Of a stretch of 64,000 nucleotides of DNA, positions 37,296 through 61,626 are shown piece by piece. Origin of the DNA: Xylographa opegraphella (lineage: Eukaryota); NCBI GenBank assembly GCA_022813865.1, contig JALDZX010000054.1:1-64000 (forward strand), read 5' to 3'. A program made the translations under genes and the position numbers. The notes under the pieces were generated by a model. That model ran no database searches, had not been told where the DNA came from, and saw nothing but the letters and a program-made list of their open reading frames with translations. Position 1 is the stretch's first letter, and each line of letters starts with the position of its first letter.

Positions 37296-38799
37296 GCTGG
37301 CCCGCCCAGGGAAGCGGCCACCTCTTCAGGTGGCGCTTGCTCGATCGACCTGGGAACACCTCTTACGGGTGGATGGCAGGAGTGTGATCCGATCTCCTCA
37401 TCCGGCTATGATATCTGCAGCCGCGTGAAGCTCGAGGGGTCAGGGTTGCGTGATATATAGTGAGTGCTCTGGCGGAAGCTCCAGAAGGATGTGGCAGCCC
37501 TAATGATACGGGCCGGCGCTGTGGGATGTAGAAATTCAAGGAGGGACTAACGCTGGATTTCAATTGGAAGGGGATCTCAGCAACGGATTGCACCCTAGCA
37601 CTCGACCCCACGAGACGCCATACACGGTCGTGGAAAGGAGATGTTCGTCACCGTGCGTGAAAAAGAAGGAAAGCAGGATCGTGGGCTGAGGTTACACGAG
37701 ATGGGGGACTGTCAACGTGTGAGAAGCAAGCGAGGATCCGTCCCGACAATCAGTTTCTTTCCCTCCCCCGGGGGGGGTGGATGGGCGGGCCAGGCCCTGG
37801 GACCATCACGCTAAGCACGAGTCAAGGGAGTGTGGCCTTCACCCTTTCCAGCGGCATTAGTGGCTCCAATGGACAAGGATTAGGGGGGTTTGGGGNGGGG
37901 GGGGGGGGGTGGGGGAGGAAAGAGAGCGCCCGCTGGGTGTGCTGATCAGTCAGTTACCAAAGTACTACTGCAGTATAGTATGTACGGTGTATGCCCCTCG
38001 ACCACTCGTCTGTCTGCAGGGGGCCAGCGTCTTGCATCCACGCGCGCCTTCTCCCCCCACCAGAGACGAAATCCAAGAGTCGTCGGGACATCCCCATCCC
38101 CGTCCCCATCGTTTCACCACGGACAAGCCTCCACTCCCATTCCGTGGCCAGTCACGCGCAGTTCCAAGGGCCCAAATGTACCGATCATGCAAGTGCGGGT
38201 TGCGGGTTGCGGGTTGTGCGGGTGTATAACGTTGGAGAACGTCCCATCCATCTTTCCCACATCCTCAGCATCGGGTGGCGTGGCACGACTCTGGAAAAGG
38301 CTACTGATCCTTCGGGGAGACTAGAACGAATAGGGTCCCGTGCTGTAAACTACCCCGCCACACGCCCCACTAACATCCCGGCCCCCGGGAGTCCTCCCAA
38401 CTGGCAGCTGCACCTAACCCAACCGCCTAAGGTAAGATAGACACAAACGCCCCCTCCCCCATGCTGGCCACGATCCAGGCTCACAATCCACCACGTCAAT
38501 GGCACTTCACTCATGGTGCATGGCTCATGAGAACATGAGACCATTTGGCCTGGATGCTTGCGACATGCAGAATGGCTGACAATGGCTGACGATGGCTCGA
38601 CGATGATGGCTGTCTGTCCTTGGTCCGGCTGCTGGCCAACCCACCGCACTGGACCCGGCCCGGCATGCTAACTTTAGCTTCCGGCAGCGAAAGCCTGTGG
38701 GCGGGATCGGCGGGGTCGGCTGTCGAACGAACGGCCCCGGACGGAAAGCTTGCGTCGAACCGGCCCTCACTTTGACCCCAAAACTCCCTCTTTGCAACT

Positions 38800-39154
38800 T
38801 GCAAAGCCTGCAAAGCCTGCAAAGCCTGCAAAGCCTGCAAAGCCTGCAAAGCCTGCAAAGCCTNNNNNNNNNNNNNNNNNTGCAAAGCCTGCAAAGCCTG
38901 CAAAGCCTGCAAAGCCTGCAAAGCCTGCAAAGCCTGCAAAGCCTGCAAAGCCTGCAAAGCCTGCAAAGCCTGCAAAGCCTGCAAAGCCTGCAAAGCCTGC
39001 AAAGCCTGCAAAGCCTGCAAAGCCTGCAAAGCCTGCAAAGCCTGCAAAGCCTGCAAAGCCTGCAAAGCCTGCAAAGCCTGCAAAGCCTGCAAAGCCTGCA
39101 AAGCCTGCAAAGCCTGCAAAGCCTGCAAAGCCTGCAAAGCCTGCAAAGCCTGCA
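38800..39154. repeat. Perfect 9-bp minisatellite (tgcaaagcc)n, at least ~37 copies, spanning an assembly gap (N 38864-38880)
   Basis: Directly visible. Confidence 0.97.
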
Positions 39155-39388
39155 GCGACGCCGAGTCAGGATGGCAACAGCCATCAAGAGCCAGCACCAA
39201 TGCCGTACACCGGCGGCCGTTCTACCAGTACATCCGTCTGCGCGCAGCTGCGCATGTCAGTCCCTTGGTGACCGCCCACTCCACCACACCACACCGTCCA
39301 ACCAAATCTTGCAATCCACACCCTCCCCCCACTTCTCGCCCGCCAACCTCGCCTCGATCCTCTCGACTCTGCTCTGCTGTACTTGACT

Positions 39389-48240: not shown

Positions 48241-49101
48241 GTTCCAATAATGCAGAAACGTATACTGAGGGTTGCGCTGACACGCAGTTGGATAGGTAAA
48301 GTGCACTGCAAATAGCCTAGCGCGTTCATCCTTTCGAAAGCTTCAATGACGATGATTTGGCGCTTATCCTAGCGGGAGTTTGTCAGATCTGGTCCCCCGT
48401 AGATACCCGAGAGTCCTCAAAAGCCGCTAACGCAGCGTCCAAGACCAGATACCTTAGTTTTCTGTCAAATACTACAGCAACTTCCTACCAACCGCGATGC
48501 TCTTCATTAAACGTCTGTATCTTTTCTCCCGCACGTAGTGTGACATTACTTTCAGAATGCTGTTTTTGTCTGACGAGATGATGGCCTCTCTGTGTATAAA
48601 ATATAAGCCGATGACTTATTCCCAAACACCTCAACAGGAGCTGTACTAAATTACCTTGTAGACTATGGGTATCTTAACACAAGAGATTCCCCCTTGGTAC
48701 CGAGTCCACTTGTTATATTTTTCTCCGAATGGAAACGAACCATGGTTGCTGCGTGATATCTTTATCTTAGCAGCCGGCATCTTCGTTTACTGTTATCTTT
48801 ACACGAGACATACATATTGTTAGAACTTCTCCTACTAGAGGCTCATCCATTTCATACGTATCACAGTCTCAATTAAGCAGCGATGTAAGTTCATTTCGTA
48901 AGCTACTGTCCTGACTAGAGTGCGCACCAGAACAAATGCAGCTTCAAGCCTAGCAAGAACCCACATTTCCTGTTTCCCATTCCGTCCCACATACCCTCCG
49001 ATGGCCCTTGCACCAGAGGAGCTTTAACACCCACCACGAGTAGAGAATAAAAGCTGCAAGCCCACTTAAAGTTCGACTTTTGGCGCATTGGTAAGGAGCC
49101 C

Positions 49102-49454
49102 CTATTCGGAAGCGGCGATAATACGGTGCAAGATGTCGACGTTGGTGATCTCACTAGGTGGCTTGCAGCAGCAGCAAGCGGCGCGGTCTGTCCGTAAACT
49201 ATGAGTAAGAAGCCACCAGCAGTGAAGGTATATACATGTAACGGACCGGTATTGGCCAGCTCCTCAGCGGTGAAGAAGCTCTTGTTGATGGCGCGGCGGA
49301 GGAGGTTGCCGATGGCGTCGCCACCTGATCAGCATTAGGAATGGCCACTTCTGTAAAGCGGAACCACGAGATGGAGGAGCTTACGCTTCTCAGTTGTGGG
49401 AGCAGCCATAGCGAGGGTGGCGCAGGCGAGGAGAATGATGGATGAGAACTGCAT
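49102..49454 (-). CDS. Small secreted Cys4 prepropeptide, 77 aa (candidate DUF3328 substrate / RiPP precursor); exons 49454-49385, 49324-49247, 49187-49102
   Basis: Spliced translation MQFSSIILLACATLAMAAPTTEKRGDAIGNLLRRAINKSFFTAEELANTDRAACCCCKPPSEITNVDILHRIIAASE*. It has a classic signal peptide ending AxA/AP and a KR site. Intron 1 is GTAAGC..CTAAT..CAG (60 nt); intron 2 is GTCCGT..CTCAT..CAG (59 nt). Codon usage is strongly C-ending in all three exons. Exon 3 frame depends on the weaker second donor. Confidence 0.75.
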
Positions 49455-51888
49455 GTTGGCGTCGGCTTTGAGATAGACCCTGAAGAAGCTGAGGCAGTAG
49501 ATGCTGAAGTGGGTGATTGAAAGATGAGATGCTTTGAAGACTGTTGGATGATGGTGGAAGAAGTGAGCAAGAAGCTGTCTTTTATCTCTTTTCTTCGAGA
49601 CTTTTGCTCTCTATGCTTCTTTATGGTATACTACTGCACAGTCGTTTCTCCTCGTTGCTGCGCTACTGTGTGGCTATTGTTGCTTATCGTCGAAAACATC
49701 ACGAGAACAGCACTGGAACGGGAGAGAGCCTGGTGTGTCTTGGAAGAGAGAACAGTCCAGCCCATCAATACGCGAAGCTGTAATAGCAAATGCAAGTGAG
49801 AATTGTATTTGGAAGGCCTGCATGCGGCTACATCCTTGCAATGTAACGTTGAAGGACAGTGCATTGTCAAGTTCTGAGTCCGCTTCGACGGCTGTGAGCT
49901 GGCTCATGCAGTCCTCGTCGAAAGCATCTATGTGTTCGACCGGACTTTGGACTGAAGTAAATTCTAGAACAGCCTGACTGCGGCTAAGCAGACCGGTTGT
50001 AAAAGCTTACGCTTTTGAGAAGCTGACCCACGGTAAACACCTTCTAGAGAACTCCGTCCATCCTTCCTGTCTGACACTGGCTATCAAAGGTACAGCTTTT
50101 TTGTAACGTGATATTCTCCTCTTCCCATCTCTCATTGTTGTTTGAATGCTTCTAATATAATGCACGGATACCTTGGTGGTGTGTAGCATATGTTCTTCTT
50201 TTGTAGCGATTTGACAGGTGGCATTTCGCGGATGTCAAGCTCTACTCCGCTGCACAGATGACCTAGACTGTTCTGCTGTTGATGTTGACACGGAATGAAA
50301 GCACATATGATGCGGACCCATGGTACATGAAAGCAAGAACTAACTGCAGACCCGAGCTAAAAGGTAGAAAAAGATGTGGGTCACATGGGTAGCGAATGTC
50401 TTCAATTATGTAGATACAGAACATATGCAGTAGCCTTAAATTCATGAAACAGCTTCAGCATAAAAGTAAAATGCCAATTATACAGCTAGTGATTTCATTG
50501 TCTGTTAGTGTACGAGGACACCCTTCATAAGATAAATATCGAGAATAAAGGTCCACGGTTTTCCATAATTGGGTACCAGAACTTGGTCTTTACATATACA
50601 TTCGTGTCTGTGCAGCCGCTTGCTTGTGTATGGTAAAGCTATCTACTAGGAAAGCAAGGATCGCAATAGACTAGTAGCCATAAAGGCACTATACACGATG
50701 TTCAGGCCTATCGTGGCTCGGACATAGTGTAGGGACACTAGCGTATAAGGATGACATATAAGAAGCAGGCTAGAGCGAGGCTAGAAAACGACAATGAAAC
50801 TAGAACAGCAGGCGAAAGCGGCGTTATGGAGAATACAAGGTATACATAACAATATGTACGTTGGCGCCGAGCGGGGTCAAACAGAGCATCCTAAGGTACC
50901 TTCAGGAACCCTAGGCGGAGAGGCAAGAGCTAAGGCAGGTTGACAGGCTTGTCCTGCATTGCTGAAAGCCTTGAAGAAATTGTGGAGACAGTCAGGTTCT
51001 AGGTAGACTTGTACATACGTGCATAATCTGCTTCCAATTGATCAAATCAGATGATACAAATTTCGGGGGCCACGCCCAAAGAAGGAGCCTGGCTTGAACA
51101 TCTGCATCTCAACGCTTGCAGGGCGAGGTGCTGTGCGGCTGGCTCAAGAAGCTGCAGGACGAATTTGTGAGGCGGAAGAGTGCGCTGGATGAAGAGCTGC
51201 AGCAGCTATGACGGAGGTATTTCGTGACAGCAACCCAAAGGCACCACACCTTGGAATGTGATACAGGCACACTGTTTGAATAGCGGTATAAGTTATAAGG
51301 ATCCTTCCGACTTTACTACCTGATGCATATCAGTTTACAAGAAGCAACCGGTCACGAACCGGAGCGGGGTTTTCCCCACACTTTCCAGGCACGAGGCTAA
51401 GGTAGGGCTCGGCCCGGAAGGCGGGCGGGAGGCGTGACATTAGCGGTGCGCTACGGAGGATCCCAAAGTAGACTAGACTAGTCTAGTGCATGGCTTGCTT
51501 CGACTCTTCGAGGTGTCTTGTGAGTTGCGACCACACTGCTCTTTGCATGTCAATGTACCGCACCGACATGAAGCTCAAGGATGTGTCAGCGCACCTGACT
51601 GCTAGCACTTTCTTCATGGCATTCTTGTACCCTTAGCGCGCCAGACAATTCGTTTCAACGGCCTCATAATCCGGCATCCAAAATGTCAGTTGATAAGCTT
51701 GCATATTTATGCCAGCTTGAAAATTGCAACCGAGTGCCTTCAGTGGCAAATTGATAAAACTAAGAATAGAGAGTGAACTTACTGATATCCGTCCGAGTCG
51801 TATATGCCTTTGAACTATCCCCCTCGCTTTCTGCTCGTCTGCCATCGTCCCCATCTGTTCGTCCAATTTCCAGAATCTCTTGTCCAAA

Positions 51889-53094
51889 ATGAAGCCTGTC
51901 TATGAATCTCTCTCGTCCAAAGAAGGCAACTCCCTTCTAGAAGAGAAGCTCTCAGAGACATCAAGCGATGATGTTTTCCCCCCTGCCTATATTCCTACTA
52001 TCAAGCGTCGTGAATGGTGGCTGCGCATTTGCGCTCTCCATGCTACCTTGATCGTTTGCTATTGTCTTATCATTACTGCAGTAGTTACCCGATATGTTAC
52101 TCACAAAGAGAATCTCGGGCCGGGTCTGATATACAGTAAGTCTGCACTGCATTATTGGTAAAGCAATGGCTCATTTCGGTCAGCTCCTGCTCGACCAGTG
52201 CTGGGTTATCATTTGCGCCCGCCGATTCCTGATACCACCAACAAATTGCATGGAGATCCTTTTTTTGGAGACCCATCCCCCGAGCTTGACATGCGTTGGA
52301 ACATTCGGCTTGAGTGTAAGACTCAACATGCAACGTCAGAACCTCTCAAAATTCTGCCACTGACAACTTGCAGCTGCCTCCATACGACTGAGTCAAGAAG
52401 AGTTCAAGAAGTACAACCAGAGTAGCGGTATTCTTTTAGGTGATGGCTCAGGAGATTATCTTGCAACGCCGACCATGTACCATGATCTACACTGCATTGT
52501 AAGACGGAACCTATCATTTCTTTCCTCCCACACTTGACCCTGCTCCGATATATTAGACCAATTTCTGATATCGAGCAGGAATTTCTTCATCAAAGCATCT
52601 ATCCGGATCATTATTGGCCCAACGATACACCTGAGAAGAAAGAAGGAAGAGCTTATCATGCTCGTTAGTGCTCAAGTCCTGCATGCTCTCATACTTTTTC
52701 TTTTGGTCTCTGGCAACTTCAGCCCTCTATTTCTTGAGTAAATATCCTGGTTCCAGTCTTACAAGCAATAGGTCACTGTCTCCATAATCTCGCTCACTCA
52801 GTGACATGCGGCGCTGATATGAGCATTCGAATCATGCGGTGGCTGCCTGACCAGCTTCTGCCAAATCCAGTTGACCACGAACACGAATGTCGCAGCGAAG
52901 GTGCCATCAACCAATGGGCATATGAGCGTAGAGTCAACACACGAGCGCCCGGGATGCTTGTCCACCCAATACTGGGTCAGTTCGCCATTGAGGTCTCGCT
53001 ACCGAGATGGAGGATGCAATACTGACAGACCTATGTTGCAGGTGAGGTTTTTCCGGATGGCAAGTACAAAGGAGATGATGATGATGATTTGTGA
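51889..53094 (+). CDS. DUF3328 / UstYa-family oxidase; exons 51889-52135, 52184-52315, 52374-52498, 52579-52663, 52772-52975, 53042-53094
   Basis: Five canonical GT-AG introns give one open frame with an N-terminal TM helix (WWLRICALHATLIVCYCLIITAVV), IYTPA, FFGDPSPELDMRW, two HXXHC motifs (YHDLHCIEFL and HARHCLHNLAHSVTCGAD), HECRSEGAINQWAYER and HPILG. Confidence 0.9.
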
Positions 53095-59732: not shown

Positions 59733-60393
59733 CATGCATGTCAGGAAGGAAGTTGGTTGTCTGTGTACGGGATTGATATATATACTCCGATGTCACGTGT
59801 CAAGTATAGTGAACTCTCCAGGACTATTGTTTGGATTCAAGTATCAAGTGGTCGAATCTGGGTTTGGAAGCCATTCAATACGTAATGTATCTTTTCTCTG
59901 CAAGTATACCTGCCAGCATTTGTGAGATTGATTAAGGTCGTATGCGGATCCGAAATAAAGTATTTCGCAGAAGTGCTAAAGAAGTATGGAGGCGACGGCA
60001 CGAACTTGACAGGTTGAATGAGATGTCTAGTCCACAATACAATTATATCAAATCTGAAATTACCTGGGTACTGTGACGCTGCCAATTATTTCTGATACCT
60101 ACGGAAGGTAGTCCCCTATACTGCCTCTGTGACGAGGTAAACGCGACACAGGGCTTAGCGCGAACCGATTAATCTCGCGATACCTAATTAACACCACACC
60201 TCCTTCCCTCGATCCTGACACGCACGCTTCTTCCAACCACACACATACGACACGGAAACCCTAAGCGCGGATCGACCGCCGAGCTCAACTGTCGCGACGC
60301 AACAATTCATCCTGGCGGGTATGCTCTGTCTTCTGATCGAATGTCCCATTGAATGGATTACCCACTGAAGTGTGATCATTAGACATCAACAAC

Positions 60394-61626
60394 ATGTTCG
60401 GCGTTTTACGCCCCAATTCCCCGGAGCGGGTACCCATCTCGCCGGAGGAGTCGCCCCCGCCGCCGATGAGTATGGCTGCGCCGCCGCCAGGCGAGTACAG
60501 CAGTCGCGAGGAGCTTCTCGAGTTCATGAAAGACTGGGCGGAGAGCCAGGGCTACGCCGTCGTCATCGGGCGTTCTCGGGTGAATCGTCTGTGGATCAAG
60601 TGTGATCGCGGCGGGAAGTACGAAGACAAGCATGCGGACCATCCTGAGAACCGGAAGCGGAAGCGCGGGGAGTCGCGCTTAACGGATTGCCCGTTCAAGG
60701 TGCAGGCGAACGTGAAGAAGGATGGCATCTGGCGCAGTCGCACGGAGAATGCGGAGCATAACCATGGGCCCTCGGAGGACCTGAGTGTCCACCCCAGTTT
60801 GAGGCGCATGAGCGATGAGCAGGTGCAGAAGGTCAATGAGATGACTGAGGCGGGGAACACGCCGGTCGAGACGCTGGAGGAGCTGCAGAGGCTTTGGCCT
60901 GGCATCAAGGTTCTGAGACGGGACATATACAATGCGAGGAAGAAGTACAAGACGGAGAAGGAGCTGGCGGAGATCGCGCAAGGCTTACACATGCCCCAAG
61001 CGTTCCAGGATCCCAATGGCGTCATGCCTGGTCCCACACGCAACGGACGCTGGGAGTGGCTCGAGGAAGGCGACGAAATCCGGAGGAAGAAGAAGAAAAA
61101 GCCTTCGCTGCCGCCGCAATCGCTTCTCGCGCCGGAGTTGAGGGACAGCAGTGTTCCTGCTCCTGCCACCCGCCGTCAGGCTGCCACCCTCGGCAACTTA
61201 CCACCCAAACCCTTTTCACCCGCCCAGCCCGTTCCTGCGCAGCAGCAGCAGCAACAGCAACAACAACGCACTTCGTCTTCGATCCGGTCTCAGGAAGCCA
61301 GCTTGATACCGAACGGAGGTCTCGTCCCGTCGAATTCGCCGATGCGCTTCCGCAGCAACAACGGCGCGGCTTCGTATTCTCTCCTGTCCGATCCTTCCCT
61401 GCAGCAGCCCCTTTCCGAGGAGCCGAGCGCACGTGGTGCACCCCAGCGACACGCGGCACCTGTCGAGGCGGTGGCGTCCACGAGCGGCGGGGCGCCGGGA
61501 GCACCGAAGACGGCACCCAGCGGGCAGGTATTGATGTCGCGGATCGAGCGGATGGAGAAGGAGCAGAGGGACCAGAAGAACATGCTTGCGCAGATCCTGG
61601 GCGCGGTCCAAGGGATGGGTCGGTAG
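60394..61626 (+). CDS. FAR1/WRKY-GCM1-type (Mutator-transposase-derived) DNA-binding domain protein lacking a transposase catalytic domain
   Basis: YSSREELLEFMKDWAESQGYAVVIGRS..IKCDRGGKY..SRLTDCPFKV..W..EHNH followed by a helix-turn-helix-like region (RDIYNARKK), a basic NLS, poly-Q and a C-terminal coiled coil. Confidence 0.78.
   Translation: MFGVLRPNSPERVPISPEESPPPPMSMAAPPPGEYSSREELLEFMKDWAESQGYAVVIGRSRVNRLWIKCDRGGKYEDKHADHPENRKRKRGESRLTDCPFKVQANVKKDGIWRSRTENAEHNHGPSEDLSVHPSLRRMSDEQVQKVNEMTEAGNTPVETLEELQRLWPGIKVLRRDIYNARKKYKTEKELAEIAQGLHMPQAFQDPNGVMPGPTRNGRWEWLEEGDEIRRKKKKKPSLPPQSLLAPELRDSSVPAPATRRQAATLGNLPPKPFSPAQPVPAQQQQQQQQQRTSSSIRSQEASLIPNGGLVPSNSPMRFRSNNGAASYSLLSDPSLQQPLSEEPSARGAPQRHAAPVEAVASTSGGAPGAPKTAPSGQVLMSRIERMEKEQRDQKNMLAQILGAVQGMGR

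Follow-up and report, generated by a model that had tools for sequence, protein, structure and literature searches.

A three-exon gene and its surroundings

We analysed a 64-kb stretch of the genome of Xylographa opegraphella (64,000 nucleotides, hereafter the window) and found a three-exon gene on its minus strand, running from 49454 to 49102. Joining the exon coordinates by script gave a spliced coding sequence of 234 nt that encodes 77 aa. The spliced product matches P0001 letter for letter; this is the 77-aa Xylographa opegraphella entry deposited as 'hypothetical protein MMC26_006240'. The splice model with a GTCCGT donor is thus also the public annotation, and the deposited P0001 model is a prediction too. 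The features of the gene and of its divergent neighbour are as follows.

49385..49454, minus strand: exon 1, with the ATG (49454-49452), the signal peptide and a Xylographa-specific pro-piece; it ends with K and the first base of R
49325..49384, minus strand: intron 1, 60 nt, GTAAGC...CTAAT...CAG, in which CTAAT is branch-like
49247..49324, minus strand: exon 2, with the remaining pro-piece, the RR site and the first conserved, predicted helix (AINK...EELANT)
49298-49293, minus strand: codons of the RR site, within exon 2
49188..49246, minus strand: intron 2, 59 nt, GTCCGT...CAG, phase 1
49102..49187, minus strand: exon 3, with the loop, CCCC, the PP turn, the second conserved, predicted helix (ITNVD.LH..IAASE) and the stop codon TAG (49104-49102)
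49165..49176, minus strand: codons of the invariant CCCC, all TGC
51889..53094, plus strand: UstYa/DUF3328-like gene, divergent neighbour, hand-built model of 6 exons and 281 aa

The GC content was 0.52-0.55 across the gene, compared with 0.41-0.47 in both flanks. Codon usage was scored as a log-likelihood trained on seven confident ORFs from the window. The whole spliced coding sequence reached +10.3 bits in frame against -10.5 and -17.4 bits in the other frames, with exon 1 contributing +4.7 bits and exon 2 +9.4 bits in frame. The frame of exon 3 was not discriminated by codon usage (-4.0 bits in frame, -3.4 and -8.7 bits otherwise). By inspection, exon 1 begins with Met-Gln-Phe, followed by a hydrophobic core and a small-x-small A-M-A ahead of the likely cut, which reads as a typical fungal ER signal peptide. 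A tblastn search with seven foreign homologues revealed no second copy of the gene in the 64-kb window.

The start codons of this gene and of the UstYa-like gene are 2434 bp apart, in divergent orientation. In our hand-built model, the product of the neighbour has a single membrane helix at its N-terminus and carries the HXXHC motif twice, as HDLHC and HARHC. Against a cut-off of 25 bits, PF11807 scored 34.6 bits in one exon frame of this gene (52738-53025) and 22 bits in another. The Pfam match and the two motifs together identify the neighbour, as modelled, as an apparently intact member of the UstYa family. The model ends in an acidic DDDDDL C-terminus, and the gene stands alone among housekeeping genes. 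All other genes of the window recognised by Pfam were of this kind, namely RhoGEF, BAR, NF-X1, ATP11, AMP-binding, cyclin, hydrolase, velvet, cyclophilin, F-box, RSN1/PHM7 channel, CCT, IRE1-like kinase-RNase and AFT-domain proteins. A Pfam scan of 30 ORF translations, which could miss short or heavily spliced genes, detected no tyrosinase, methyltransferase, P450, reductase or transporter in the 64 kb.

The 2.4-kb spacer between the two genes (49455-51888) holds only short stop-to-stop frames, 110 aa at most, in which small spliced genes are possible. Two repeats were observed elsewhere in the window. At ~38700-39170 there is an extended tandem array with a repeat unit of about 9 bases, which reads as LQA, CKA or AKP repeats depending on the frame; the N run inside it is probably an assembly gap within a minisatellite. 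A CAG/TGC run at ~61239-61283 encodes poly-Gln in the AFT-domain gene (60376-61626, plus strand) and poly-Cys on the opposite strand, indicating that simple repeats in this genome can give rise to TGC runs.

Conservation of the tetracysteine and processing of the peptide

To place P0001 in a family, we searched 1.84 billion cluster representatives with phmmer. This search uncovered four relatives, with E-values from 1.6e-16 to 3.2e-9.

P0002: Agyrium rufum, Pertusariales
P0003: Polychaeton citri, Dothideomycetes, Capnodiales, 145 aa
P0004: Usnea florida, Lecanorales
P0005: Xylographa trunciseda, a congener

A profile built from four members then identified 37 proteins including P0001, that is, 36 relatives, among them P0008 (from a Pseudevernia consocians assembly) and 30 unnamed Logan/ENA gene calls. 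The named relatives span three orders of Lecanoromycetes and one Dothideomycete. Word-index protein searches with the exon-3 frame and with P0001 returned P0001 itself only, and the relatives were reached through phmmer and the profile only. Two scans of JGI metagenome contigs gave 51 and 338 pattern matches, all of which were rejected by tblastn, and yielded no relative's locus.

The CCCC run was present, with unchanged length, in all eight members that extend past the first helix; this conservation rests on eight sequences, with 28 of the 37 members being truncated gene calls. The earlier note on this DNA had proposed the three-exon model with the GTCCGT donor, and had pointed to an alternative GTATAT donor or TAG acceptor that would shift exon 3 into a frame reading TAPLAAAASHL. 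The homologues answer this in favour of the CCCC frame. Their spacing from ELA(D/N)T to D..CCCC is what splicing from the GTCCGT donor to the CAG acceptor gives, and when seven foreign homologues were aligned to the window with tblastn, exon 3 was matched in the CCCC frame only, at 62-79% identity. In addition, P0006 and P0007 are uninterrupted ORFs on contigs of 1.4-1.5 kb that join both parts in the CCCC frame; we infer that these contigs are either transcript assemblies or intron-less genes. The possibility, also raised in the earlier note, that the cysteines are not conserved in homologues does not agree with their invariance in the eight members.

The position of intron 2 was conserved across the family. 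P0009 shows an in-frame read-through of an intron at this position, and 28 further gene calls end 3-29 residues past ELA(D/N), as expected if gene callers that do not model splicing run into a conserved intron. Intron 1 is apparently missing from most relatives, whose gene calls continue uninterrupted from the Met to the ELAD motif. Together, these comparisons support the three-exon gene, read in the CCCC frame, as real.

The residues invariant in the eight full-length members are R34, A35, I36, E45, L46, A47, C54-57, P60, I63, N65, V66, D67, L69, H70, I73 and S76. They are spread over the whole unit and both helices, without concentration in one short core. By inspection, the spacing of I63, V66/D67, L69/H70 and I73 places them on one conserved face of the second helix.

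We then examined where the mature peptide would begin. The earlier note had started it after a KR at residues 23-24 and had given the sequence that follows correctly. This KR occurs in the Xylographa proteins only (2 of 37 members), so that of the two features it had proposed to follow in an alignment, the cysteine run is kept and the dibasic site as it was placed is not. The conserved site lies ten residues later, where an Arg immediately precedes AIN in 37/37 members, as RR in 28 of them and as S/N/G/A/P-R in nine. In P0003, a second unit with a similar A-V/I-D-Y start follows directly after KTKR and matches exon 2 of the window (E 0.003). The conserved Arg or RR site and the unit start behind KTKR suggest that the processed unit most likely begins at AIN.. 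and ends at ..ASE, spanning 43 residues in P0001.

This placement bears on other parts of the earlier description. With the cut ten residues past the KR, the first of two 'amphipathic segments' said to flank the CCCC straddles the cleavage site. The claimed similarity of the two segments was at the level of shuffled sequence: for P0001, 125 of 2000 shuffles reached the observed local-alignment score of the halves beside the CCCC, and for six relatives 161 to 1989 of 2000 did. The best local match between the P0001 halves was also a different pair from the one named. An internal duplication of the two helices was therefore rejected. The absence of Tyr and Trp, by contrast, is true of P0001, where the 43 residues after RR contain neither and nor, by inspection, does the pro-piece GDAIGNLLRR, but it does not extend to the family: 31 of the 37 members have a Tyr in the first helix, replaced by Phe in Xylographa and by Asp in four others. 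The mature peptides are acidic, with a net charge of -2 in P0001 and -3 to -6 in five relatives. Across these six members the hydrophobic moments were modest (0.13-0.36) and each mature peptide had 1-3 His. H-L-H is present in some members.

No named family matched P0001, hydrophobins and other Cys-rich secreted families included, in Pfam, the PDB or the ESM Atlas. Pfam gave no family at E-values up to 0.1, a PDB profile search gave a transmembrane-like match only (E 1.8), and the best ESM Atlas scores, 0.78 and 0.77, were below lead level with no matching cluster. A literature search that covered few subscription journals turned up no account of secreted CCCC peptides as a family. Judged from these comparisons, P0001 belongs to an unnamed, conserved family of predicted secreted pro-peptides that occurs in lichen-forming fungi of the Lecanoromycetes and in one or more Dothideomycetes, and that is known almost entirely from predicted proteins. 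Four consecutive Cys, invariant in a 43-residue secreted peptide shared by two fungal classes, make an unusual motif, without a described role in the literature searched. The family also carries a lesson for annotation, with 28 of the 37 database entries truncated at the conserved intron and one congener in the wrong frame. Annotation under-reports the true range of the family.

Comparison with known fungal precursors

The gene lies beside a UstYa-like gene, and we compared its product with the dikaritin precursors UstA (ustiloxin), PhomA (phomopsin) and AprA (asperipin-2a), taking the features of the class as the accessible descriptions in PMC12048977 and PMC7329392 give them. A signal peptide, basic sites, small size and a nearby UstYa/DUF3328 gene are shared with those precursors. 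The architecture differs, in line with the earlier note. Where these descriptions give dikaritin precursors many cores of 4-6 residues, P0001 has one unit of about 43 aa and no Kex2-flanked short core. Tandem units were rare in the family: P0001 has one, and a second was found in 1 of 37 members (P0003). The tyrosine that is typical of dikaritin cores is absent from P0001, and although it occurs in most relatives it is not invariant (Phe or Asp in six). The CCCC family conserves the whole unit across classes, and its gene in the window has no tyrosinase, methyltransferase, reductase or transporter nearby, unlike dikaritin clusters. By these comparisons the CCCC peptide falls outside the dikaritin-type precursors in the defined sense of that class; it could nevertheless be the partner of a UstYa enzyme. 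Taken jointly, it is very probable that the gene is real, that its family is conserved, that the CCCC is functional and that the product is not a classical dikaritin precursor.

The Kex2-processed repeat proteins (KEPs) surveyed by Umemura (2020, PMC7329392), which include yeast alpha-factor and the Ustilago Rep1 repellents, share secretion and a probable kexin cut at a basic site with the CCCC peptide. According to the figures given there, 22% of KEPs have DUF3328 neighbours. The two units of the Polychaeton protein, separated by KTKR, are KEP-like. In comparison with KEPs as that survey outlines them, however, P0001 and 35 of its 36 relatives carry one unit only, the basic site reads RR or xR where KEPs have KR, and typical KEP peptides are ten times shorter than the units seen here. 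Lacking repeats, the CCCC peptide is not a KEP in the sense of PMC7329392, as far as that source sets out its definition. The two-unit Polychaeton protein may nevertheless hint at a KEP ancestry.

A third comparison is AcaA, the precursor of acalitide, which by the description in PMC10840396 is likewise fungal, has a single core, measures about 80 aa and contains four Cys. There, the four Cys are paired in disulfides, presumably by the general disulfide isomerases of the ER. The likeness is one of description only, and acalitide differs in its spaced Cys (C-x3-C twice), its head-to-tail cyclisation by a dedicated peptidase and, as that account has it, no UstYa.

Possible roles of the four cysteines

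The reading that we favour, while holding it tentatively and as one that may well prove wrong, is that the CCCC serves as a hub of disulfides between chains. The signal peptide, as read from the sequence, would carry the pro-peptide into the ER. A kexin-type protease in the Golgi would then cut after the invariant Arg that precedes AIN, a step suggested by the conservation of this Arg and by the KTKR ahead of the second unit in the Polychaeton protein. In Xylographa only, the extra KR would also release a ten-residue pro-fragment. The product would be an acidic peptide of 42-44 residues in which a loop, the CCCC and PP connect the two conserved helices. Four adjacent thiols in the oxidising secretory pathway are hard to pair within one chain, so the CCCC would most likely link separate chains through disulfides, and two-helix units would be joined covalently as a dimer or a larger oligomer. 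The peptide would work alone, and the UstYa-like gene would be a chance neighbour.

Adjacent cysteines next to prolines are known to lock chains covalently, as in the C-terminal CC knot of collagen III and the CPPC of the IgG hinge. These are animal proteins with no homology to P0001, and the analogy is mechanistic only. AlphaFold2 predicted the helices at low confidence, with a mean pLDDT of 60 from the single sequence and 53 from an eight-sequence alignment. The structure prediction proposed in the earlier note thus gave helices, whereas a folded hairpin was unsupported, and a linear precursor would give equally low confidence. A prediction of the two-copy complex of residues 35-77, run without a family alignment or controls, scored 0.02. 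The earlier note had listed disulfides, thioethers, metal binding and polymerisation as options for the four Cys, and as we read the evidence nothing in the analysis separates them.

An alternative, which we consider rather unlikely, is that the peptide is a single-unit precursor of a ribosomally synthesised and modified product. After cleavage of the signal peptide and by kexin, the neighbouring membrane-anchored UstYa-like oxidase would modify the CCCC region, for example into Cys-derived cross-links. If true, this would be a new UstYa chemistry on a new kind of precursor, with one long unit in place of many short cores. An intact UstYa-like gene with both HXXHC motifs, divergent and 2434 bp away, fits a precursor-enzyme pair, and the two proteins would meet in the secretory pathway. 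The second unit behind KTKR in P0003 resembles a Kex2-repeat layout, two relatives (P0034 and P0037) duplicate the 8-residue motif FTE.ELAN, and the low AlphaFold2 confidence is compatible with an unfolded precursor. The adjacency of the UstYa-like gene, though, is known from one genome, and the earlier finding was made while looking beside that gene. With about nine loci per genome, the average from the lichen survey cited below, and on the assumption of ~9,500 genes, a few hundred of them for small secreted proteins, roughly one such adjacency would be expected by chance in every two genomes. The adjacency argument is therefore weak alone. Further points against modification by the neighbour are that no other tailoring or transport gene lies within the window, that there is no short core between processing sites, with all 43 residues conserved, and that known UstYa cross-links use Tyr, which the mature part of P0001 does not contain. 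We know of no UstYa enzyme that acts on Cys, and no report of one was found in the literature covered, which included few subscription journals.

The same question has a wider context in lichen genomes. Pasinato & Singh (2025, PMC12048977) report 987 RiPP clusters in 111 lichen genomes, about nine per genome, and raise the possibility of a single-core precursor. In the portion of that work describing two conserved clans, UstY-like signature genes are present and no repeat-bearing precursor was found. For such loci, as they appear in that account, a conserved single-unit secreted peptide beside a UstY-type enzyme is a concrete candidate. The strongest form of this proposal, a new class of secreted peptide in which a UstYa-type oxidase acts on the tetracysteine centre of a single long unit to make unprecedented Cys-derived cross-links, would be improbable on the present comparisons. 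If it did hold, the many orphan UstY loci known from lichen fungi could find their 'missing precursor' type in tetracysteine peptides. We regard the link to UstYa chemistry as a possibility rather than a finding.

It is quite improbable, in our view, that the product is a secreted thiolate peptide in which the four Cys (including C-x-x-C), the invariant His and the many acidic residues bind a soft metal, for instance Cu(I) or Zn, in the wall or extracellularly. Fungi living on exposed surfaces could use such a peptide to buffer metals. Cox17, Atx1 and metallothioneins are precedents for Cu(I) binding by CC and CXXC motifs, and here CCCC and H70 are both invariant, the mature peptides of six members have a net charge of -2 to -6 with 1-3 His, and some members carry H-L-H. 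Set against this, thiols in transit through the ER are normally oxidised, P0001 has no Pfam or solved-structure match, and the only metal-related neighbour is the AFT-domain gene 11 kb away. To our knowledge, fungal metallothioneins and copper chaperones are not secreted.

That there is no gene here or that its model is wrong, with (TGC)4 as a non-coding trinucleotide repeat or exon 2 continuing unspliced into a 137-codon frame (48915-49328), is very unlikely: the deposited P0001 model is itself a prediction, the annotation of P0005 in X. trunciseda leaves the intron in, other donor forms are commoner than GTCCGT, codon usage does not back exon 3 and a (TGC/CAG)n run occurs elsewhere in the window, yet CCCC and the downstream helix are in frame in all eight full-length relatives from two fungal classes, P0006 and P0007 join both parts in uninterrupted ORFs, and the family alignment already contradicts such a reading.

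Two open frames overlapping the gene were rejected. The 137-codon frame on the minus strand (48915-49328) has no homologue and no Pfam match, and the 111 codons of its read-through part scored -7.9 bits. Running unspliced from exon 2 through intron 2 and well beyond the real stop, this frame is open by chance and could mislead gene callers. A 143-codon frame (49199-49630) has no Met. Among the relatives, the P0005 model (66 aa) has its first residue within the signal peptide and, with intron 2 left unspliced, goes on in a shifted frame (..PLAAAA..). Such a reading is what a TGC run gives one base out of frame, so P0005 looks mis-modelled rather than a counter-example, and its true product probably also carries CCCC. 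In P0003, at residues ~70-100, the first full unit is followed by KTKR and AVDY..FTEEELAN and then by unrelated sequence at the intron position of the family. Possibly this gene codes for two complete units and its 3' end is wrongly modelled. In P0034 and P0037, a tandem duplication of F/Y-T/S-E-x-E-L-x-N was observed in the first helix, and the copy number of this motif varies in the family.
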